A stretch of 26,061 nt of DNA, from the UHGV virus genome UHGV-0036034; one strand, given 5' to 3'. This document shows positions 2,084 through 25,048 of this stretch, one piece after another (the stretch's first letter is position 1; each line of letters begins with the position of its first letter). The DNA comes from a virus. The translations under genes and the position numbers were made by a program. Under the pieces are notes generated by a model that was not told the DNA's origin, ran no database searches, and saw nothing but the letters and a program-made list of their open reading frames with translations.

Positions 2084-4486
2084 TCACGCCCATGTCGCAT
2101 CTATGTAGAACGTTGGAGATGTAGTGGTGGACCCTTCAATCGATATTTGTCCTGTTGAAGCATTAATGGTGGCCATTGCCATGCCAAATGAAACGCCATC
2201 ATCAGTGAACGGTACAGGGACATTTTTGGTTACTTTTGGTCTGCACCACCTCGGAAGCGTTAGAACAGTATTGCCATTCGCAAATGAAGTGGCTGCCAGT
2301 TTAATATTAATTGAATTGGCAGTTAAACTTGACGGTGCCTGTACTGTTACGTTTGTTCCAGCCCACCATTGAACAGCTGCTCTTGGCGTGTAATCAACAC
2401 GCGACCACCAGTCGATAATGGCAGAGCAGATAATTTCCGCATACAGACGATACCCTAACTGGCTTTGGTGAATGTCATCACGCAGAAGTGGGTCGTATTG
2501 CGTGTTGAAATACTCTGGATATGGGGCCGGGAGCTGGTGAGTTGTTGTTACACAAATGACGTTATTGCCATATTTCATCATCTGGCGTTTACCAGCCTCG
2601 CGTAACTCCGCAACACCATCGTAATTTGCTGATGGCTGACCAGCCCCTCCAATAAATGACTGGCTATACCACATCCACGGCTCAACCCAAACAGGTACAC
2701 GCCCGAGACTGTTGCAATATAAGACAAACTCATCTATCAGTGCCGCCATATAATCGCCGTTTTGGTTTCCCTGCCCTTCGTTAGTTCCGGCAACCATAAT
2801 AACGATGTAAGCATCACCCGGCCCCTGAGCCTTCAGGAGATCTAACTGTTGCCTCATTGTCTGTCCGGCAACCGCCTTGTTTACAATGCTATATGAACGG
2901 TGTCCGTTCGCTCCATCCATTAATTGCGGAATGTACGAGCTGAACGCAGAAATGAAATCCTCAGCTGTACTATCACCGTGGATAAGGATATTAAGTGGAG
3001 GCTTACAGTGCACACCATTATCAGAGGTATAGCTAGTCACGCCAGTTACTCGTACAATCGTATTGGGAGCACTACTATTAGCTACAAATCCTACCTCGTA
3101 AACGTCACCTACCGCCGAAGTATCATATGGCAGTCTAAAGCTAACACCATTCATTGTAATTACAGCCCAGTTCTTTGACTGTAATGCCACCCCAATAGTA
3201 GCCTTACCGGGAGCGTAGGACAGCAACCCTCCAGGAAGTGAGAATGGAGAACCGTTTACTACCGCGCCTCCAATTGCTTTCTGCCGTACATCCCATTGTG
3301 GAGCACCAGGAGCGCCGTAGAACATCACCCATCCACCTGAGCACCGTAACACAATACCCACTTCATTAAGAGTATTAGACTCAGCACGAATATGTCCTGA
3401 CACATGCTCACCTACTGCAATGGGTACGAACAATCCACGGGTAACAGAATCGGGTAGAGCAAATAGGGCTGCCGTTTCGGAGCTAGCGAATAATGGACCC
3501 TGAGGCGTAAATGAATCCCCGTCCACTGCATAGACAACACAATCAGACCATTCCACTCGCTTCATGCGAATAGGGTTTCGGTTGAGGATGGCCTGCTTAG
3601 CCAGATAATCCACTTCTCCACCGGTTGTTGTGAAATTAAGATGGGAAAACTCAAAAGTGCATTCACCTTCAAACTTCAGCGACTTATAAAGCGAGTAAAG
3701 ATCGCTGTCGAATTTAAGAATGACGTTTTTATCAACGATTACACGGGAGTTTTGCAGATTTCCTGCCTGTGAGGCCGTTCCTGGTATTGTATAAGTTTTC
3801 TTTGTTGCAGAGTGGCAAGGGAAATAAACATAGCCATAGAGATTTACACTCTCCACCCATGCTGCAACAACGTTTGATTGATTGTAAGATGGCATAACGG
3901 TGATTGGTATCGGCTCAAATTTATCCACACCACCGATCTTTTTCCATCCGTCAGGCTGAGCAAGAAGAATCAGCACTTCACTGGCAGAAGCACTCGGAGG
4001 GAGAATGGCTATAGGCTGCCCACTGTCATCCCAGCCAAAAATCATATTCCGGCGACTTGATACCTTTGGCACCAGGTTTACACTGTTTTCAGGAACCCTA
4101 AGCGTATTTCTCTGAAGAGCACCGATGTTGAACATCGCATGCTGAATAAGCATGGTCAGGTAGTCGAATGCATCCTCATGGACCTCTGCAAAAAATTTCC
4201 CCTGATTTCTTAAATCAGTTTCCTGCACTGCTGGAAGGTTACGAGTGATTGATATTGTAATGCCTGGCAAAACAGGAGATGACGTAATAACGCTTCCACC
4301 GGAAGATAAGCCAGCACCTGTAACCATGTAATCTGTCCCCAGGCTCATTGGAGAAACAAGACCGTCAGCGGTTATTGTGCTTACATCAAGATCTGTGTCT
4401 TTAAAAATTCTGAAAGTATATGGGAATGATGTCGTGACTCCATTCCCGAGATACTCATTGTGGCTGATTTCGGTTGAGACTGTCAT
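2084..4486 (-). CDS. Tailspike with podovirus-type N-terminal tail-attachment domain and C-terminal SGNH/GDSL esterase domain
   Basis: 800-aa ORF with GGAG RBS 8 nt before the ATG. The N-terminus (MTVSTEISHNEYLGNGVTTSFPYTFRIF) matches the conserved pattern of T7 gp17-like tail-fibre/tailspike N-termini. The C-terminal part carries the SGNH blocks in order: GDS (NILIHGDSTAEDF, Ser about 506), GTNE (about 567-570), DxxH (DDIH, about 670-673). Confidence 0.85.
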   Translation of the reverse strand: MTVSTEISHNEYLGNGVTTSFPYTFRIFKDTDLDVSTITADGLVSPMSLGTDYMVTGAGLSSGGSVITSSPVLPGITISITRNLPAVQETDLRNQGKFFAEVHEDAFDYLTMLIQHAMFNIGALQRNTLRVPENSVNLVPKVSSRRNMIFGWDDSGQPIAILPPSASASEVLILLAQPDGWKKIGGVDKFEPIPITVMPSYNQSNVVAAWVESVNLYGYVYFPCHSATKKTYTIPGTASQAGNLQNSRVIVDKNVILKFDSDLYSLYKSLKFEGECTFEFSHLNFTTTGGEVDYLAKQAILNRNPIRMKRVEWSDCVVYAVDGDSFTPQGPLFASSETAALFALPDSVTRGLFVPIAVGEHVSGHIRAESNTLNEVGIVLRCSGGWVMFYGAPGAPQWDVRQKAIGGAVVNGSPFSLPGGLLSYAPGKATIGVALQSKNWAVITMNGVSFRLPYDTSAVGDVYEVGFVANSSAPNTIVRVTGVTSYTSDNGVHCKPPLNILIHGDSTAEDFISAFSSYIPQLMDGANGHRSYSIVNKAVAGQTMRQQLDLLKAQGPGDAYIVIMVAGTNEGQGNQNGDYMAALIDEFVLYCNSLGRVPVWVEPWMWYSQSFIGGAGQPSANYDGVAELREAGKRQMMKYGNNVICVTTTHQLPAPYPEYFNTQYDPLLRDDIHQSQLGYRLYAEIICSAIIDWWSRVDYTPRAAVQWWAGTNVTVQAPSSLTANSINIKLAATSFANGNTVLTLPRWCRPKVTKNVPVPFTDDGVSFGMAMATINASTGQISIEGSTTTSPTFYIDATWA

Positions 4487-4563
4487 GTTAATTCTCCAGA
4501 TAGTCGCAGCACCCGTTGCGCCGCATATCCGGTTATTCTATTACCCGAAAAACCACATATGGA

Positions 4564-4605
4564 TAGACAACCCATAAATACGAACAGATATTACCTTTCA
4601 GGTGA
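4564..4605 (+). promoter_or_regulatory. Promoter-like element with 15-bp inverted-repeat site (copy A)
   Basis: -35-like TAGACA (4564-4569), 17-bp spacer, -10-like GATATT (4587-4592), then TTACCTTTCAGGTGA (4591-4605). Sits about 90 nt upstream of the 86-aa plus-strand gene. Confidence 0.4.
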
Positions 4606-4623
4606 TTCGCAAAACGTGCTGGA

Positions 4624-4644
4624 TAGCAAACAAATTATTTGCTA
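4624..4644. promoter_or_regulatory. Inverted repeat TAGCAAA-N7-TTTGCTA in the leader of the 86-aa gene
   Basis: Read directly. It is the second copy of a TGGATAG(A/-)CAA direct repeat (4560-4570 and 4620-4630) and is followed by an AT-rich TATAAATATA stretch. Confidence 0.3.
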
Positions 4645-4681
4645 CTGTATAAATATACAGTTATTGCATGGAGAAGATAAG

Positions 4682-4939
4682 ATGCAGCAGTATCACTATC
4701 CACTGGAAGACGGATTTACCGAAAGGATTCACACGCCGGGAGGCGTCAGGTCACTGGTGGAGGGATCGCACTTGATGAAATTACTCCGGGATCTCGATAA
4801 GGATGGATTTAATGTCGATGGCCCACTTGCCGAACTGACTGCACTGATTAACTACGTCACCAGCTCGCAGATGTCTATGCAGGATCTGCAAACACATCTC
4901 GACTATTGTGCCGAACAATTACGAAAACAAACCAGATAA
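4682..4939 (+). CDS. Hypothetical protein (86 aa), plus-strand cargo gene
   Basis: ATG at 4682 preceded by GGAG at an 8-nt spacing. Opposite orientation to the structural operon. Protein MQQYHYPLEDGFTERIHTPGGVRSLVEG... has no recognisable motif. The track start at 4559 has no RBS. Confidence 0.55.
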   Translation: MQQYHYPLEDGFTERIHTPGGVRSLVEGSHLMKLLRDLDKDGFNVDGPLAELTALINYVTSSQMSMQDLQTHLDYCAEQLRKQTR

Positions 4940-4942
4940 GGT

Positions 4943-4985
4943 TTGAAATTACCAAATGGAGTGCTTATATTTACCTTTGCGGTAA
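4943..4985 (+). promoter_or_regulatory. Promoter-like element with 15-bp inverted-repeat site (copy A')
   Basis: -35 TTGAAA (4943-4948), 17-bp spacer, -10 TATATT (4966-4971), then TTACCTTTGCGGTAA (4971-4985). The same inverted repeat could instead fold as a weak terminator hairpin for the 86-aa gene. Confidence 0.4.
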
Positions 4986-5126
4986 ATTTACATCGCACTC
5001 CTCTTGTGCCATAGTAATCGGGCACTGGCAAAATCCAGTGCTGGGATTGGTCTCCCGGATTACTACAGAGTTAGTGCTACACTCATTGACGCCACATTGA
5101 GGTGGCTTATAGATGGAAATTTCACA

Positions 5127-5288
5127 ATGAAAAAAGCATTTGCTGCACTGTTCGTTTTGTTGTCTCTGGTAGCTTCAACTCAGGCCTTTGCCGGTCGTTG
5201 TCAGCACGACAGCGACACTGCTGCTGACGGCTCCCGCTGCGGTGGGCGTTCTGCGGATTCCCGCCCTGGCGGCGGTGGCATTCGTTAA
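5127..5288 (+). CDS. Signal-peptide microprotein (53 aa)
   Basis: MKKAFAALFVLLSLVASTQAFA-GRCQHDSDTAADGSRCGGRSADSRPGGGGIR: textbook Sec signal (basic n-region, hydrophobic core, AFA-G cleavage motif) and a roughly 31-aa Gly/Arg/Asp-rich mature part with two Cys. No obvious RBS; possible upstream promoter TTGACG (5086-5091). Confidence 0.4.
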   Translation: MKKAFAALFVLLSLVASTQAFAGRCQHDSDTAADGSRCGGRSADSRPGGGGIR

Positions 5289-5310
5289 AAACAAGGCCGC
5301 GAAAGCGGCC
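5285..5310 (-). terminator. Intrinsic terminator of the minus-strand ejection/membrane-protein operon (convergent with the plus-strand cargo)
   Basis: GGCCGC-GAAA-GCGGCC hairpin (5295-5310), followed on the minus strand by TTGTTTTT. Lies directly after the stop of the 98-aa membrane protein gene. Confidence 0.55.
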
Positions 5311-5311
5311 T

Positions 5312-5323
5312 GTGACATGTCAC
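5312..5323. repeat. 12-bp perfect palindrome GTGACATGTCAC, copy 1
   Basis: Exact 12-mer. It overlaps the TGA stop of the membrane-protein gene 5320..5616 and abuts the terminator hairpin. Confidence 0.9.
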
Positions 5324-5616
5324 GTTCCTTTTCTGAATGATAGCCGTTCGAAAAATGATGACATTCCACCGCAGACAATAGCAAAGATGATCCCACCAAA
5401 GAAGAGAAGGCCAGCCTGCCACCACTCCCACCGCCATACATCCACAGCACCAACCATACCAACAATCGCTCCAACAAATGGAATATAGCTCACGATGAAA
5501 GCAATGGGGGCTGCAATTATCCAGTGCAATCCCCACCATGATTCAAGCCCAGCCATAATTGCTGCCAACTGAAAAAGACCAACGACGATATAAACAATGA
5601 ATCCTATAGCTTGCAT
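5320..5616 (-). CDS. Small Trp-rich integral membrane protein (98 aa, about 3 TM)
   Basis: AGGTGA RBS 6-11 nt upstream of the ATG. Three long hydrophobic segments (IGFIVYIVVGLFQLAAIMAGL, IIAAPIAFIVSYIPFVGAIVGMVGAV, LLFFGGIIFAIVCGGM). Last gene of the minus-strand operon before the terminator. Confidence 0.7.
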   Translation of the reverse strand: MQAIGFIVYIVVGLFQLAAIMAGLESWWGLHWIIAAPIAFIVSYIPFVGAIVGMVGAVDVWRWEWWQAGLLFFGGIIFAIVCGGMSSFFERLSFRKGT

Positions 5617-5628
5617 GTAGTCACCTAT

Positions 5629-5802
5629 TTACCCAGTAAAAATCAGAGGCCTCCCCTCAATAAGGCTTGCAACAAGAACTATTCCCTGCACAACAAAGAT
5701 GAACCAGCAAATAGCTTGAGTCTGAGGGTTAAGAAAATATTTGTAGCGGTCAATAAATAACAACCCACCAGAAATTATCACACTCAAAATAATTAAAAAC
5801 AC
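5629..5802 (-). CDS. Candidate small 2-TM membrane peptide (about 57 aa, GTG start), below the 60-aa track cutoff
   Basis: Open frame immediately after the TAA of the 824-aa gene. AAGGAAG RBS overlaps that stop, then GTG about 4 nt downstream. Translation V/MFLIILSVIISGGLLFIDRYKYFLNPQTQAICWFIFVVQGIVLVASLIEGRPLIFTG. Its stop overlaps the RBS of the next gene. Confidence 0.35.
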   Translation of the reverse strand: MFLIILSVIISGGLLFIDRYKYFLNPQTQAICWFIFVVQGIVLVASLIEGRPLIFTG

Positions 5803-5811
5803 AACACTTCC

Positions 5812-8286
5812 TTATTGCGGAGTGACATCCTGAGGTCGCCACCAGTATGTCTGATTAAACTCTTTCTTCGAACGTTGCTCCATTTTACGCAAATAGCCTG
5901 GTGAAAAATACTCCTGCATCTGGTTAAAGATCATATGATCGAGAGCCGCCTTTAAGTACCAGAGATTCGCACCGGGCATCAAACCTTTCCCCAGCTTCAC
6001 CAGATCACCACCAGTCTGCTCACTCTTCCCTTCCACAGCATTTAACGGTATGCCCTGAGCAATCTTCACTACGTCATCAACCAGACCAGCTACCGGGCCA
6101 AGCATCGACGCCAGCGCGCCGCTTCCGTACCTAGTGTGATCTGACAATAAAAAGTCACCGTAAAGGCCAAGGCCACCACCTTTCAGTAGAGCACCAAGCC
6201 AGAATTTTGCGGCACCTTCTCCTGTCATCTCTCGAGGATTACGACCAGACGCAAGGTCGTTAAGTTGCTGCGACAAAGCGCCAAGAATGGTCGTACTGGC
6301 AATAAACGTCGCAATATATGCCGCACGCCCACCAGCAGACGGCATACCCATAGCGCGTGACCAGTGACGCATAACAACCGAGATAGGGAACGATTTAAAC
6401 AGGAAAACACTTCTCGTTAATTCACCTTTCCATGTTCCACGCTGAATACCAGAACCGGTTATCAGTTGCTCACGAGCTCCCGGTGTAATAACAGCCATAT
6501 CAACTTCTTCAGTTACGGCACCGAGCAATTTACGCATTGCCTCAAATTTCACGCGCTCAGGCTCACCAAGATGTTTAACTGCTGAATCAGGGATACGCAT
6601 AATGCTTTCCGGTGTCAGCATCGTATTATTACCGTTCCCCCAGTCCTCCTGTTGCGCCAGCTTCCATACGCTCCAGTCTGTGTCAGTAATCCCTTTGCTT
6701 TTCAGGATACGAAAATCAGAGTCATCGAGGCTACGAAGGTCTGGTGTCCGTGACACTACTTCTCCCAGGCTTCCCATCATGGTTACGCCATAGGCGCGCT
6801 TGTGCGCATCTGACCATGCTGTAAGCCCACTGGCACGCATTACCGCCGTTGCCGCCCAACGAGACACTGACGGCCCCATATTATCCATCGCCCAGCGGTT
6901 AACGCTGCCAAGTAGAGATTCCATCGCCAGACCAGCGCGGCGCGCCCGCGCAAGTTCTGTACGGTTCGTTGGGTCCATAGCTTCAAGCTGGTTGCGGAAT
7001 AACTGGTTCATTGGAAGGTTGGTAACCTTCGCAGACAGATACATGGTTCCAAGATCAGAGAACGATGACAGCAACGCGGATCCGAGTCTGCTGGCAACCA
7101 GCCAGTTGCGGATATTGTCAGACCATCGCGCGATGTGCGGATTCGCTACAGGCTGTGTCTTTCCGGAAATAAAGTTGTACAGATTCTCTGTGTTGTTCGC
7201 CAGCCGCTCGACTTTACCGGTTTTACTCGGGTTAGCTGTTGCCGTTTCTGCCTTCACCTGATCAAGAAGAGAGCGGAAAACATGATCGGGGTTTGGGCCA
7301 TATGTTTCCACCAGTGCAATATCTTTACTGATACCTTCCAGGTGACCGACCATGATTTCCCATAGAGAGCGATCACCATAAAGTTGTTGATATTGGAGAT
7401 AGGAATCTGCATCTTTGAAATGTATCTGTCGTGATGCATTACCACGGTTAGCACGTGCGCCGGAAATTCGCATTCCGGTATCAGTAAGCTTATTCAGCCC
7501 ACCAGTAGCGATCGTGTTATAAGCCTCTCCAAGAAATGCAGACAACTCGGCATCGTTCATCAGTTGTCCATCGGCTCGGGTATAATATTTGCGATCCAGC
7601 TTACCTATAACATCGCCAACCCACTTATCCTTTGATACCGCCCCAACCTTTTCCATAGAATGATGTTGAGGGATCCCCCAGTTTTCGAGATAGCCAATGT
7701 CCCCACCAGCATCATTAAACCGGCGGCGCAGCAGCTCTGTAACTTCTCTCCACGCCTTAGCACCTTTTCTTGCTTTAGCATTGCCAGTATTTTGCCCCCG
7801 CATTTCATATACCAGGTCACGTACGCCCGCTTCATCTTCAAACAGACCAAAAAAGCGAGGATCAACTGCTTCGAATGCCTCCTGCAATTGACTCAATGCA
7901 TAATCACGGGTGGCTTTTGTTCTGGATTCAACAGAGAGGAAATTAGATTTACCGTCTGCATTAAAAGCTATAGTACGGTTAAGAGCGCCAAGTTTCCCAT
8001 CAGCCCCTTGATAGCTATTGATAAATTTATCCAATCTCTGACGCGCGGCTATAGTGAGAGCCACACGACGTTTCTTTAATGCCGCTTCTCGCTGTAATTC
8101 TTCAGATGCCAATTGTGCTGCTCGATATAGCCGCTCTGATTCGGAAAGTTGTCGCCACGACATCGGATCATCACGAGCAATGGAGCGCATATTTCGATAA
8201 ATGCGGTCTTCAATGTTCTGTATTTCTCGCGCCGTTAACGTGCGCTGCGCCGCCTGCTGGACCGCTTGTATACATTCCTGTCTCAT
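5812..8286 (-). CDS. Large internal virion / ejection-type protein (824 aa)
   Basis: GAGG RBS. Third of three large genes between the tail tube genes and the tailspike, the position held by internal core/ejection proteins in short-tailed phages. No catalytic motif recognised. Confidence 0.6.
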   Translation of the reverse strand: MRQECIQAVQQAAQRTLTAREIQNIEDRIYRNMRSIARDDPMSWRQLSESERLYRAAQLASEELQREAALKKRRVALTIAARQRLDKFINSYQGADGKLGALNRTIAFNADGKSNFLSVESRTKATRDYALSQLQEAFEAVDPRFFGLFEDEAGVRDLVYEMRGQNTGNAKARKGAKAWREVTELLRRRFNDAGGDIGYLENWGIPQHHSMEKVGAVSKDKWVGDVIGKLDRKYYTRADGQLMNDAELSAFLGEAYNTIATGGLNKLTDTGMRISGARANRGNASRQIHFKDADSYLQYQQLYGDRSLWEIMVGHLEGISKDIALVETYGPNPDHVFRSLLDQVKAETATANPSKTGKVERLANNTENLYNFISGKTQPVANPHIARWSDNIRNWLVASRLGSALLSSFSDLGTMYLSAKVTNLPMNQLFRNQLEAMDPTNRTELARARRAGLAMESLLGSVNRWAMDNMGPSVSRWAATAVMRASGLTAWSDAHKRAYGVTMMGSLGEVVSRTPDLRSLDDSDFRILKSKGITDTDWSVWKLAQQEDWGNGNNTMLTPESIMRIPDSAVKHLGEPERVKFEAMRKLLGAVTEEVDMAVITPGAREQLITGSGIQRGTWKGELTRSVFLFKSFPISVVMRHWSRAMGMPSAGGRAAYIATFIASTTILGALSQQLNDLASGRNPREMTGEGAAKFWLGALLKGGGLGLYGDFLLSDHTRYGSGALASMLGPVAGLVDDVVKIAQGIPLNAVEGKSEQTGGDLVKLGKGLMPGANLWYLKAALDHMIFNQMQEYFSPGYLRKMEQRSKKEFNQTYWWRPQDVTPQ

Positions 8287-8291
8287 TTAAT

Positions 8292-10094
8292 TTAACCTCT
8301 CAAGAAACACGCCACAGCAACATCAAACAGGCTGGAATCCTGTATTGCCTGCTCACTTTCCCTGTTCGCTTCATCCAGTACTTCACGCGCACTGCGCGAT
8401 TGTGGATTACCATCATCATCCAGTACGGTGATTATCATGTCCGGAGATTCAAGCAGCGAGTCTTCAGCTATACGCAGATCAATATCTCCTGCCGGATCTG
8501 CCATCATTTTTTGTTCTGCCTGTTGCAATATTTTATCAGGCTCAAAAGGAGCTACTTCGTCTGGCGTCCTGACCTCTGCTGTTTTATAGAATGAAACAGC
8601 CTGAGCATTAAGTTCACTTTCTGCCTGCTTTCTCCGAGCCAGTTCTGCTCGAGCTTCAAAAAACTGACCGCCAGGCTCGTGCGGTGCCAACGCGTTACGG
8701 GAAAATTCCAGGCGTTCTTGTGCCTGCCGGATTCGTTGATCAATATCGCGAAGTCTGGCCTGTTTATCTGATCGAGCACGAGACAAAGCTTTACCGCTAC
8801 CGGTTGGCTCTTCTGCAAGAATTTGTGCACGCTGTTCAGTGAGATTTTCAATAATTCGTTGGCTATTAGCGATTTCAGACTGGTAAACCTGTCTATCTCC
8901 ACGCGGCAAAAGCTGCGCGGCCTGTTCTTCAAGCAACCGATTTTCTATAGCGCGCGCCGTTACTCCATCATCTACAGATGACAGAGCCTCATTAACTGCC
9001 TGAGACAGCAGACTCTTGCGCCCAGGAATTTCACTGAAAGATGCAGACTCAACAATGCTGGCAACGTCTACAGGTCTCCCCTGGCTAACATCAGACATAG
9101 CTTTTCGCAGAGCCTGAATGTGAGAATTGCGCGAAAGCACGTTGATCGGCACGCCGGGCGCAATATCAATTTCAGCATGATGAGCGGCATTCGCCGCCAG
9201 TGCAGCATCGATATCAACTGGTGAAAAGTTTGGTGCGTTTGTAGACTCGCCGCGAGAGTTAATAAATCTGCCGACACCACCAAACGCCACCCCAAGAACA
9301 GCATCAATAGCAATTGCCTGTCGATCCAACACATCATACTGGTTAGCCATTTCGCTATAGCCACCATCACGAAGCGTTTTTGCAGTAAGCCCACGCTGTG
9401 CCATACCGAACGCAATATTTGTACCTGCGGCATAGGCAATATCTGGCGTTGCACGTACTGCTGTTGCCGCGGCGCGTCGCACTGAACTTTCACCCGTCCG
9501 CGCAAGCTGAGCCGCCACACCTTCCGCTAGCGCACCACCAGCACGTAACCCGAGACTCATAGGGATCAGTGTTCCGGCACCAGCAGTAATACCCTGCACT
9601 AATCCCGCTTCCTGCGCCGTCCTGAAATCAACCCCCTGCGCTGTCAGTCGTTCAAACTCAGAAAAACCCTGTAGCGAAGTTACCGCCGCAGCACCTCCGA
9701 TCGGACCACCGAGCGTTGTACCGACAACAGCCTGCCCGCCCATATCGAACAACCCATAAAGAACCTGCCCTGCGGTTCCGGTTGTCGCGGCATCAGGCGT
9801 CAGCCGCTTAACCTGCTGCTCTGCTAGTTTTCTCTGCTCGGCAATGTATGAAACTGAAGTGTCATTGAGCGAGGTGTTTTCGTTAACAAACTGAGCAATC
9901 GGGGATACGATTTTATCCATCCCTGCCCATAGCAACTGATCTGGCTTTGCCACCAGCCCGGAGTACAAACCAGACAATGCCGCTCCTACAGCATTGTCGA
10001 AAAAACCAACATCGCTGTTAAAGCCAGCTGGATTTGATGCTGCTTCGTCAAGCTGCTGATTCTGGTTTACTGGATTAAGGCCAAAGTAACTCAT
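8292..10094 (-). CDS. Internal virion / ejection-type protein (600 aa), Gly/Ala-rich with coiled-coil-like C-terminal half
   Basis: ATG overlaps the upstream stop. Low-complexity G/A-rich N-terminal half and charged helical C-terminal half. Function inferred from position. Confidence 0.6.
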   Translation of the reverse strand: MSYFGLNPVNQNQQLDEAASNPAGFNSDVGFFDNAVGAALSGLYSGLVAKPDQLLWAGMDKIVSPIAQFVNENTSLNDTSVSYIAEQRKLAEQQVKRLTPDAATTGTAGQVLYGLFDMGGQAVVGTTLGGPIGGAAAVTSLQGFSEFERLTAQGVDFRTAQEAGLVQGITAGAGTLIPMSLGLRAGGALAEGVAAQLARTGESSVRRAAATAVRATPDIAYAAGTNIAFGMAQRGLTAKTLRDGGYSEMANQYDVLDRQAIAIDAVLGVAFGGVGRFINSRGESTNAPNFSPVDIDAALAANAAHHAEIDIAPGVPINVLSRNSHIQALRKAMSDVSQGRPVDVASIVESASFSEIPGRKSLLSQAVNEALSSVDDGVTARAIENRLLEEQAAQLLPRGDRQVYQSEIANSQRIIENLTEQRAQILAEEPTGSGKALSRARSDKQARLRDIDQRIRQAQERLEFSRNALAPHEPGGQFFEARAELARRKQAESELNAQAVSFYKTAEVRTPDEVAPFEPDKILQQAEQKMMADPAGDIDLRIAEDSLLESPDMIITVLDDDGNPQSRSAREVLDEANRESEQAIQDSSLFDVAVACFLRG

Positions 10095-21852: not shown

Positions 21853-21896
21853 TAGACAGTTGACATTTAACGCACGAATTATTACCTTTCAGGTAA
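21853..21896 (+). promoter_or_regulatory. Promoter-like element with 15-bp inverted-repeat site (copy B)
   Basis: TAGACA (21853-21858) and consensus TTGACA (21860-21865), about 17 bp, then TTACCTTTCAGGTAA (21882-21896). Lies in an AT-rich divergent intergenic region. Confidence 0.4.
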
Positions 21897-22218
21897 CCAA
21901 AGAGTTCATTCCGGTTACTAACCTGACTGGCTTGTCGTTAAATTGAACTGGTGGAGTGAGCTTTTATTTTGAGCAGTACGGCGTATGGCACATGCGCCGA
22001 TAGCGGTCTGGATACGTTTAAGGGGCACCCTCCCTTGCTCGGGCAAACGAACCAGGTAGCCGGAATGTGCAAGTCGAGCGGTTTTATTCCGCGCACGGGG
22101 ATTCACCATCCCGGCGATTCGGTGTGACGCCTCGGAAGAGACGAGGGTACAACGATGAGAGCATTTATGGAGCCGCGACAAAGTGTGGTGCCTTAACAGG
22201 CTAAGTGCTCTCAGCGTT

Positions 22219-22295
22219 GTGGCATTAGCTCAGTCGGACAGAGCAACCGCCTTCTAAGCGGTTGGTCGCAGGTTCGAATCCTGCATGCCACGCCA
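22219..22295 (+). tRNA. tRNA-Arg (anticodon UCU), reads AGA
   Basis: 77-nt cloverleaf read directly: acceptor GTGGCAT/ATGCCAC, U8-A9, D stem GCTC/GAGC, anticodon stem ACCGC/GCGGT, loop CTTCTAA (anticodon TCT), 5-nt variable loop, T stem GCAGG/CCTGC with TTCGAAT loop, discriminator G, encoded CCA. Resembles the host argU-type tRNA. Confidence 0.9.
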
Positions 22296-24416: not shown

Positions 24417-25009
24417 TGATTACTATCCTGACGTTCTTTGAGTCGCTTCCTGGCTGCTGCTATGCGATCAGCAATTGTCACATTCACATTAACATCCAGA
24501 CGTTCTTTGAACGCGTTGACATCAACATGCTTACCAATCAGCTCAAGGTTCTTCACCTTGTCAGGCCATTTAATTTTTTTGAGGATTGTCTCTATCGAAT
24601 CCTCGTTCATGTTCATGATGGTCGATGACAGATCAAAGCCACTAAGCGTAGTGCGCCAGATTTTCGGCCACTCGCGGATTGGCTTAAGGCTCCCATCGTC
24701 GTTGAGGATGTCGATCACGTCCATCTGGTCGATCTCCACCAGGCGCATGAGAACGTAATCAGCACTGACGCGCATTCGTTTGTTGCGCTCCTCCATCAAC
24801 TCGGCAATCCGTTTTTGAATGCGTTCATCGCGCATCATGACACTGGCTTTAACTGCCGCTGTATTTGGGGAGAATCCTGCGTTAATCGCTGCCTGAGTCT
24901 GGTTTTCAGGCGTTTTGATGTATGACTGGCAATAAGCCTCCTGCATTGCTGTGAGCGGCTTAAATTGCGTTGATTTGCGTTTATAGGTTTTAGGTTCAGC
25001 AGGCATCAT
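24413..25009 (-). CDS. Terminase small subunit
   Basis: Start taken as ATG 25009 or 25006 (MMPAEPKTYKRK...) with GGTGG upstream, rather than the track's TTG at 25087, because a terminator hairpin and tandem repeats lie in between. Helix-rich basic protein immediately upstream of and overlapping the large subunit. Confidence 0.7.
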   Translation of the reverse strand: MMPAEPKTYKRKSTQFKPLTAMQEAYCQSYIKTPENQTQAAINAGFSPNTAAVKASVMMRDERIQKRIAELMEERNKRMRVSADYVLMRLVEIDQMDVIDILNDDGSLKPIREWPKIWRTTLSGFDLSSTIMNMNEDSIETILKKIKWPDKVKNLELIGKHVDVNAFKERLDVNVNVTIADRIAAARKRLKERQDSNQ

Positions 25010-25016
25010 AACCACC

Positions 25017-25048
25017 GTGGTAATAGTTACCGTTGTGGTAATAGTACC
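25017..25048. repeat. Tandem direct repeat GTGGTAATAGTTACC / GTGGTAATAGTACC in the terminase leader
   Basis: Two copies with an 18-bp period (25017-25031 and 25035-25048). Each contains GGTAA..TTACC half-sites in the opposite arrangement to the 15-bp motif. Confidence 0.6.

Follow-up and report, generated by a model that had tools for sequence, protein, structure and literature searches.

Work by Kim and Ryu in 2013 and by Kim et al. in 2016 is said to have described the Ant-Rep antirepression switch of Salmonella phage SPC32H. In the SPC32H mechanism, cleavage of LexA permits synthesis of Ant, which disrupts the Rep tetramer and leads to prophage induction (PMC9638917, PMC7380047). Other antirepressors are controlled through RNA elements: C4 controls the antirepressor of P1/P7, and isrK together with C4 precedes Bro-N genes in APSE phages (PMC7313666); isrK also controls an antirepressor-containing locus in Gifsy-1 (PMC4825925). 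Here we analyze the interval at positions 4487-5811 of UHGV virus genome UHGV-0036034, a stretch of 26,061 nucleotides referred to as the window. The interval lies between a tailspike gene and an ejection-protein gene, and holds four small genes for proteins of 85, 53, 98 and 57 amino acids (aa).

We conclude that the interval is probably an immI-like accessory region of a temperate podophage of the epsilon15/phiV10 type, consisting of four independent units rather than one module. The four units are an SOS-controlled antirepressor (ant), the scar of a second, RNA-controlled antirepressor, a moron for a predicted secreted peptide, and two membrane proteins carried on the ejection operon. A preliminary description of this DNA had proposed that the four genes form one undescribed module, a proposal contradicted both by their independent distribution and by the identity of one of them as a known core antirepressor. 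The island is in part ordinary: its regulatory half is already known biology, and its three envelope proteins are conserved, abundant and uncharacterized.

Results

Organization and variability of the interval

The four open reading frames (ORFs) are real and lie where the preliminary description had placed them, with the two strands converging on the hairpin at 5294-5311 (Table 1). Its sizes were right for the 57-, 98- and 53-aa proteins; the plus-strand protein, given as 86 aa, has 85. Across positions 4300-6000, the window is 99.8% identical, over the full length, to NZ_CP076267.1, which serves below as the near-identical record.

Whether the island is variable cargo had been named as a check, and comparison with related phages shows that the interval varies. 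Among the 44 related loci in which both borders are present, ant and the last ejection-protein (gp17-like) gene are 193 to 5180 bp apart, and 41 different sequences occur between them. The minimal slot is a small membrane gene alone (SPC32H, 65FD). Cargo in other relatives includes Bro-N::Ant genes (32 slots), YafO-family toxins, DUF4760 and DUF2335 proteins, a Zn-ribbon membrane protein, lipoproteins of 137-138 aa adjoining gp17 and, in Cronobacter, HicAB. The data support the view that the interval is a hypervariable accessory slot. Gene content was also compared in the 73 IMG/VR loci that have a near-identical Ant and sufficient flank. The 53-aa gene is present in 44 of these loci, the 98-aa gene in 14 and both together in eight; the 57-aa gene accompanies the 98-aa gene in 13 of its 14 loci.

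Table 1. Features of the interval and its flanks (positions in the window)
Feature	Position	Strand	Basis or remark
Flank: 800-aa tailspike	2084..4486	-	N-terminal 117 aa match tail/tailspike PHROGs and PDB depolymerase N-domains
Divergent regulatory intergenic region, tailspike (leftward) / ant (rightward)	4487..4681	.	Contains palindrome ATTACCTTTCAGGTGAT and LexA box
Palindrome ATTACCTTTCAGGTGAT	4590-4606	.	At the place of the annotated epsilon15 repressor-binding site
LexA (SOS) box CTGTATAAATATACAG	4645..4660	+	Exact CTGT-N8-ACAG match, 22 nt before ant ATG
ant, 85-aa SPC32H-type antirepressor (predicted); homologue of epsilon15 gp19, phiV10 p24	4682..4939	+	phmmer against PDB
Promoter-like site TTGAAA-17-TATATT, just 5' of isrK-like element	4943..4971	+	Best consensus match of the region, 10/12
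Truncated isrK / C4-target (a1 b1) RNA element, first two hairpins only	5009..5065	+	Rfam, sub-threshold
Deletion junction	5066..5068	.	About 1.6 kb missing relative to phiv142-3
Leader of the 53-aa gene	5069..5126	+	Extended -10-like TGCTACACT at 5076-5084; hairpin GCCAC-N6-GTGGC at 5091-5106
53-aa secreted mini-protein (predicted signal peptide, AFA/G site (AFA|G), two-Cys mature peptide)	5127..5288	+	phrog_14503; alignment
Bidirectional intrinsic terminator AGGCCGCTTTCGCGGCCT between convergent genes	5294..5311	.	7 pairs, 6 G-C
98-aa Trp-rich three-helix membrane protein, last gene of ejection-protein operon	5320..5616	-	phrog_3075, E 5e-54
57-aa two-helix membrane protein, GTG start	5629..5802	-	Shine-Dalgarno AAGGAAG 6 nt upstream, overlapping gp17 stop
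Flank: 824-aa internal virion (ejection) protein, gp17 homologue	5812..8286	-	phrog_684 'virion structural protein', 1285 bits; phiV10 p20 annotation

A predicted SOS-controlled antirepressor

The 85-aa protein had been described as having no recognizable motif, and this view has to be abandoned. Its sole match in the PDB (phmmer) is 5D50 chain E, 'Anti-repressor protein', with an E value of 4.1e-47 over residues 2-84 and about 87% identity; 5D50_E is the crystallized Ant of phage SPC32H. The protein also matches phrog_450. In SPC32H, the gene in the same place is annotated ant and is flanked by a 46-aa membrane gene and the tailspike gene. On grounds of homology, we assign the 85-aa protein as a SPC32H-type antirepressor. 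Homologues are found in all 35 related phage records found, where they are mostly labeled 'hypothetical protein'. Because Ant is present in all of these relatives, we consider it a core regulator of induction rather than a cargo, exclusion or defense gene.

The LexA box upstream of ant keeps its half-sites, with diverged flanks, in five phages of three host genera, including SPC32H, phiV10, TL-2011b and Klebsiella phage BUCT711. The near-identical record also encodes a Rep homologue (L004:31304-31888; 5D50_A, E 4e-42), the C-terminal domain of which matches 5D4Z_A (E 4e-20). By analogy with SPC32H, LexA would occupy the box in an uninduced lysogen and keep ant off; DNA damage would remove LexA, Ant would be made, and the Rep tetramer would be broken up, inducing the prophage.

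The palindrome ATTACC-N5-GGTRAT occurs at 4590-4606, 21881-21897, 25008-25024 and 25026-25042, that is, four times in the window against 0.19 expected. The copy at 4590-4606, in the tailspike/ant intergenic region, corresponds to the site annotated in epsilon15 for binding of the 'repressor', and it is kept in five phages. The four palindromes are probably Rep operators, or alternatively sites for a late regulator, in front of structural operons. The intergenic region as a whole contains conserved blocks shared by SPC32H, phiV10, TL-2011b and BUCT711.

A remnant of a second antirepressor cassette

Downstream of ant, an Rfam scan detected sub-threshold matches at 5009-5087 to isrK (42.1 bits against a gathering threshold of 50; E 4e-8) and to c4-a1b1 (31.5 against 46.7 bits). 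A blastn comparison with phiV10 isrK aligns model positions 1-44 only. The reason for the truncation is evident from alignment with phiv142-3 (L003): window positions 4404-5065 correspond to 1729-2390 of that phage, and 5069-6000 to 4001-4933. The end-points are clean, and the sequence lost relative to phiv142-3 comprises the 3' part of isrK, the C4 RNA, the Bro-N antirepressor, Orf9 and Orf10. No C4 RNA was detected by Rfam scan in the window or in the whole near-identical record. In phiV10, TL-2011b and phiv142-3, the corresponding site is occupied by a complete isrK (68-77 bits), followed by a full C4 (61-78 bits) and the Bro-N gene, and among the 73 loci a full isrK is kept in 61 and C4 in 64. 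The stub is thus the remnant of a P1-type isrK-C4-Bro-N::Ant cassette, a second antirepressor cassette carried by most relatives.

The C-terminal 74 residues of the Bro-N protein are 42% identical to Ant (E 3e-20), and the Bro-N protein is therefore a second, RNA-controlled Ant-domain protein. Most Uetakeviruses accordingly encode two Ant-domain proteins under different controls. In phiv142-3 Orf8 (L003:2582-3238) and its relatives, the C-terminal domain of the Bro-N 'anti-repressor' is homologous to the whole of the small Ant. In TL-2011b (L096 1461-5921), three antirepressor systems are stacked: the small Ant under LexA control, Bro-N with isrK/C4, and a P22-type Ant with Arc/sar RNA. The slot of this phage also holds a YafO-family toxin and the 53-aa gene.

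The preliminary description gave each plus-strand gene its own promoter-like element. Such hexamers are present in the island, and their number (6, against 3.1 +/- 1.9 expected) is within chance. Those at 4943-5015, which are probably the ones it had in view, are part of the remnant isrK element and not of the 53-aa gene; for the site at 4943-4971, the assignment to isrK is suggested by position only. Because the isrK terminator is deleted in the window, read-through from this site into the 53-aa gene would be possible.

A gene for a predicted secreted mini-protein

The 53-aa protein belongs to phrog_14503, 'membrane associated protein', in the moron category, and is named 'transmembrane anchored protein' at NCBI. 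Its hydropathy profile has a single N-terminal hydrophobic segment. Homologues with 70-100% identity occur in E. coli, Shigella, Klebsiella, Citrobacter, Cronobacter, Pectobacterium, Dickeya and Salmonella; among deposited phages, the gene is confined to epsilon15-like podophages. Aligned homologues differ in the N-terminal hydrophobic region, have small residues at -3/-1, and share a nearly invariant mature stretch, CxHDxDxAxDGSRCGGRSxDSRPGG. We take this pattern as a likely sign that the signal peptide is cleaved and that the periplasmic peptide is under selection. The gene would export a two-cysteine peptide of about 30 residues to the periplasm. The pN/pS ratio (nonsynonymous to synonymous change) is 0.15 relative to BUCT711.

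The surroundings of the gene are conserved as well. In more than 30 other loci, it follows the intrinsic terminator of an upstream cargo gene and then a conserved leader of about 75 nt; Klebsiella leaders keep TACAAT and the hairpin stem, and the leader folds with z = -2.2. Downstream lies the terminator at 5294-5311; on the minus strand its hairpin is followed by a T-run, and on the plus strand it is preceded by an A-run. With a conserved -10-like element, a leader hairpin and a terminator of its own, all predicted from their form, the 53-aa gene has the architecture of a moron.

The protein received no functional family or fold assignment from Pfam, NCBIfam, PHROGs, PADLOC or structure prediction, and a literature search for 'transmembrane anchored protein' with prophage returned no paper. 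A metal-binding reading of the CQHDSD...DGSRC motif, as Excalibur/EF-hand-like or Ivy-like (CKPHDC), found no supporting model and was dropped.

Two membrane proteins at the end of the ejection operon

The 98-aa protein has three hydrophobic segments and seven Trp residues, and its AlphaFold model consists of three helices with a predicted local distance difference test score of 90. Hydropathy agrees with the earlier description of a Trp-rich protein with three transmembrane segments, as it does for the two segments of the GTG-initiated 57-aa protein and the N-terminal segment of the 53-aa protein. The family comprises 26 homologues with 45-90% identity and an invariant W-x-W-x-W-W-Q-A..LFFG motif. 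In prophages of E. coli, Klebsiella, Cronobacter, Kosakonia, Yersinia and Salmonella, its gene invariably closes the ejection-protein operon and shares its strand. Only 2 bp separate it from the last large ejection gene in Cronobacter and Kosakonia, and in a Klebsiella locus (L093) and Yersinia another small gene lies between the two. On its downstream side, relatives have variously a Bro-N gene, an Ant-sized gene and a tailspike gene. The 98-aa gene has no counterpart in SPC32H, phiV10 or epsilon15 and is therefore optional. An exhaustive hidden Markov model (HMM) search places the domain in 739 clusters at 50% identity, with tandem copies and, elsewhere, fusions to DUF805, RDD or MORN.

The 57-aa ORF is not called by the Prokaryotic Genome Annotation Pipeline (PGAP) in the near-identical RefSeq record or in BUCT711. 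The BUCT711 homologue (L097 ~4992-5188, minus strand) is unannotated and has a TTG start. The 57-aa gene thus looks like a systematically missed small gene. The protein is a positional analogue of epsilon15 gp18, phiV10 p21 and SPC32H_019, but its sequence is unrelated to theirs, with no similarity to gp18. Conservation of the ORFs had been named as a check, and the genes are indeed under purifying selection: relative to BUCT711, pN/pS is 0.26 for the 57-aa gene and 0.06 for the 98-aa gene, in addition to the value for the 53-aa gene given above.

Both genes have good Shine-Dalgarno sequences and begin 9 and 12 nt, respectively, after the preceding stop codon. We propose that they encode small inner-membrane proteins packed onto the end of the ejection operon; the position is plain, and a role connected with it is a suggestion. 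Since the two genes are so tightly packed on this operon, the proteins would be produced late in infection, if not earlier as well. At 5645-5666 (minus strand), within the 3' end of the 57-aa gene and immediately ahead of the 98-aa gene, a hairpin and T-run resemble a terminator and could reduce transcription of the latter. In two related slots (L017 and L027), the 57/98-aa pair is replaced, on the minus strand beside the gp17-like gene, by genes for the 137-138-aa lipoproteins, which have no Pfam match.

Searches for known functions

The preliminary description proposed HMM and structure searches as a check, and no exclusion, conversion or defense family or fold emerged from them. Scans of the four proteins against Pfam, NCBIfam, PHROGs and PADLOC gave only function-less PHROG families and the Ant-related matches, and PADLOC-DB gave no family for any of the four at E <= 1. 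The small membrane proteins did not match the known exclusion families SieA, SieB (PF14163) or T4 Imm (PF14373), and the only Pfam match in the exclusion/holin test was to Phage_holin_5_2, at 15.1 bits against a cut-off of 29.2. No O-antigen polymerase, polymerase inhibitor or acyltransferase family was matched in Pfam or NCBIfam. For the 98-aa protein, two specific identities were rejected by hhalign: homology with P22 SieA (probability 0.3%) and with either of the two holins of the window (probability <= 0.2%). A Foldseek search with its model returned nothing significant in the PDB or BFVD.

Source phage and flanking features

NZ_CP076267.1 is a circular 38.7-kb molecule, 'pNADC1036guaAphage', an excised Uetakevirus prophage of E. 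coli NADC1036. Its annotation is that of a complete temperate podophage, with integrase, replication genes, terminase, portal, capsid, three large internal proteins and tailspike. The lysis cassette (two holins, GH19 endolysin, DUF2514) is complete and lies outside the island. The nearest named phages are phiV10, phiv142-3, TL-2011b, SPC32H and epsilon15, all of them Uetakevirus or near. Part of the queried region is matched in 564 of 5426 complete E. coli genomes (~10%), and the exact arrangement of the island in only three.

The tailspike matches solved structures in its N-terminal adaptor domain only; a Pfam GDSL_2 signal at residues 504-681 reaches 21 bits, below the cut-off of 32.9. In Klebsiella phage BUCT711, the tailspike adjoining the same small genes is annotated as a GDSL-type esterase. 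A tRNA gene (Arg in the RefSeq annotation) lies at 22219-22292 (plus strand), between portal-side genes and the terminase.

The AT-richness ascribed to the island is there in modest degree, its GC content of 0.455 (window 0.50) falling in the lowest 3% of equal-size windows. It does not set the island apart from its flank, as the tailspike gene has 0.464, and it does not extend to the 53-aa gene (0.574). A repeat search of the island found no meaningful repeats.

Discussion

Two readings of the interval as a whole can largely be set aside. It is very improbable that the four-gene island is a single undescribed exclusion, surface-modification or defense cargo module. Such a module would fit a hypervariable slot equivalent in place to P22 sieA/immI, the defense-like or toxin cargo held there by relatives (YafO-family toxins, HicAB, DUF4760), and the envelope targeting suggested by hydropathy for three of the four products. 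However, ant is core in the 35 relatives and has a known mechanism, the four genes do not travel together (44, 14 and eight of 73 loci, as above), and the island comprises at least three transcription units; moreover, there is no PADLOC match, and the conversion genes of this phage group are on the other side of the tailspike gene. Still less credible is the idea that the small ORFs have no function and are mere relics or annotation artifacts. Although PGAP omits the 57-aa ORF and the region has clearly undergone deletion, pN/pS values of 0.06-0.26, with synonymous change near-saturated relative to Klebsiella, effectively refute it. Reading frames, Shine-Dalgarno sequences and the use of a non-ATG start (GTG or TTG) are conserved, and exact copies of the ORFs are found on 577 to at least 1000 contigs each.

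For the 53-, 57- and 98-aa proteins, there are multiple possible scenarios, and we hold none of them with confidence. One is envelope-level exclusion of incoming phage DNA, in the manner of SieA, which we put forward tentatively, the position and localization of the proteins being the only computed features in its favor. In a more specific version, which we think rather unlikely, the 57- and 98-aa proteins would represent a new, widespread inner-membrane family that blocks the DNA-delivery channel of superinfecting relatives, as an analogue of SieA without homology, and the 53-aa disulfide peptide would be a periplasmic conversion or exclusion factor. A different possibility, to which we give limited credence, is that the 57- and 98-aa proteins serve the lytic cycle of the phage itself (ejection-protein handling or membrane targeting, protection of the producer cell, or tuning of lysis) and not the protection of the lysogen. 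The genes are packed with, or within 2 bp of, the last ejection gene with no separate promoter seen, every Uetakevirus examined has a small two-helix membrane gene there with an unrelated sequence, and the 98-aa family holds its position in six genera despite different ejection proteins. On the other hand, SPC32H, phiV10 and epsilon15 are fully viable without the 98-aa gene, and lipoprotein genes can substitute at the same spot, so that the gene looks accessory rather than essential; the lysis cassette is complete elsewhere, and there is no similarity to the holins of the phage. The 53-aa peptide might instead be a factor for lysogenic conversion or fitness, with the host envelope or the animal host as its target (e.g., in stress or serum resistance), and have no anti-phage role, a scenario that we likewise regard as possible but doubtful. 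It would agree with the moron architecture, with the strong conservation of the mature peptide in E. coli, Klebsiella, Cronobacter, Pectobacterium, Dickeya and Salmonella, and with the report that orf10 of phiv142-3, neighboring cargo of the same slot that is absent in the window, increases serum resistance (PMC7724020). Yet the serum-expression supplement for phiv142-3 lists orf8 and orf10 and does not list homologues of the 53- or 98-aa genes, and the peptide has no family or fold assignment.

Several observations weigh against our interpretation of the interval and its envelope proteins. All evidence for this phage is computational, and the Rep homologue lies outside the window, where it was checked by sequence only, in the 99.8%-identical record. 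Structure prediction for the 53-aa protein gives a confident signal helix and low confidence for the mature part. The three small proteins are without sequence or fold similarity to exclusion, defense, holin or conversion families, and the 98-aa domain, to judge from its clusters and fusions, is a widespread small membrane domain that need not be phage-specific. Finally, a consensus scan of the minus strand at 5600-8400 found no sigma-70-like promoter for the 57- and 98-aa genes. This is weak evidence, and it speaks against expression in the lysogen and hence against classical prophage-encoded exclusion.

The reading of the interval as an immI-like region of independent units has some practical implications. 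Recognition of Ant and its LexA box corrects the annotation of the induction switch in a prophage group found in about 10% of complete E. coli genomes. As many as three antirepressor systems (LexA-Ant, isrK/C4-BroN::Ant and Arc/sar-Ant) can be stacked in the slot; the window, being a natural deletion that keeps LexA-Ant only, is a useful genotype for studies of induction control. The three small envelope proteins are conserved, abundant candidates for exclusion or lysogenic conversion that are cheap to test.

Comparison with known systems

The closest counterpart of the regulatory half is the Ant-Rep system of SPC32H. The two have proteins of equal length and 87% identity, a conserved LexA box, a Rep homologue in the same phage genome, and an ant gene placed between a small membrane gene and the tailspike gene and divergent from the latter. 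They differ in that the host here is E. coli, that Rep is known here by sequence (E 4e-42) and outside the window, and that the window has two extra genes between ant and the small membrane gene.

With P1/P7 immI (C4 antisense RNA, icd-ant) and Gifsy-1 isrK, the relatives of the window share isrK and C4 directly 5' of a Bro-N antirepressor. Of this arrangement, the window retains no more than the first 44 nt of isrK; the Bro-N gene and C4 have been lost by deletion.

The preliminary description was right to equate this position with P22 sieA/immI, as the gene orders match: 7-20-16 / sieA / mnt-arc-sar-ant / 9 / gtrCBA in P22, and ejection genes / small membrane genes / ant / tailspike in the window. 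Common to both is the succession of ejection genes, membrane gene(s), antirepressor with control elements, tailspike and O-antigen conversion genes, the last of these in relatives of the window; TL-2011b even carries a P22-type Arc-sar-Ant cassette in this slot. The analogy is good chiefly because immI is an antirepressor region. P22 sieA lies on the opposite strand with its own promoter, whereas the 57- and 98-aa genes are a co-directional operon tail, and the Ant of the window is unrelated to that of P22 and would be LexA-controlled, rather than controlled by Mnt/Arc. The conversion genes of epsilon15-like phages had been placed at the position of the island, which is incorrect: epsilon15 gp21/gp22, phiV10 oac and SPC32H oac lie beyond the tailspike gene, between it and the lysis genes, as does P22 gtrABC on the far side of its tailspike gene. 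In the window, this conversion slot is empty, and the tailspike gene is directly followed by the holins.

For the envelope proteins, the nearest comparisons are with the exclusion proteins P22 SieA, T4 Imm and HK97 gp15 and with lambdoid morons. There is no sequence or fold relationship with any of these. Like the exclusion proteins, the 57- and 98-aa products would be small inner-membrane proteins encoded beside DNA-delivery genes. Like the lambdoid morons, the 53-aa gene would be a small autonomous unit: it has a terminator and a -10-like element, it is present in some relatives only, and its GC content is deviant.

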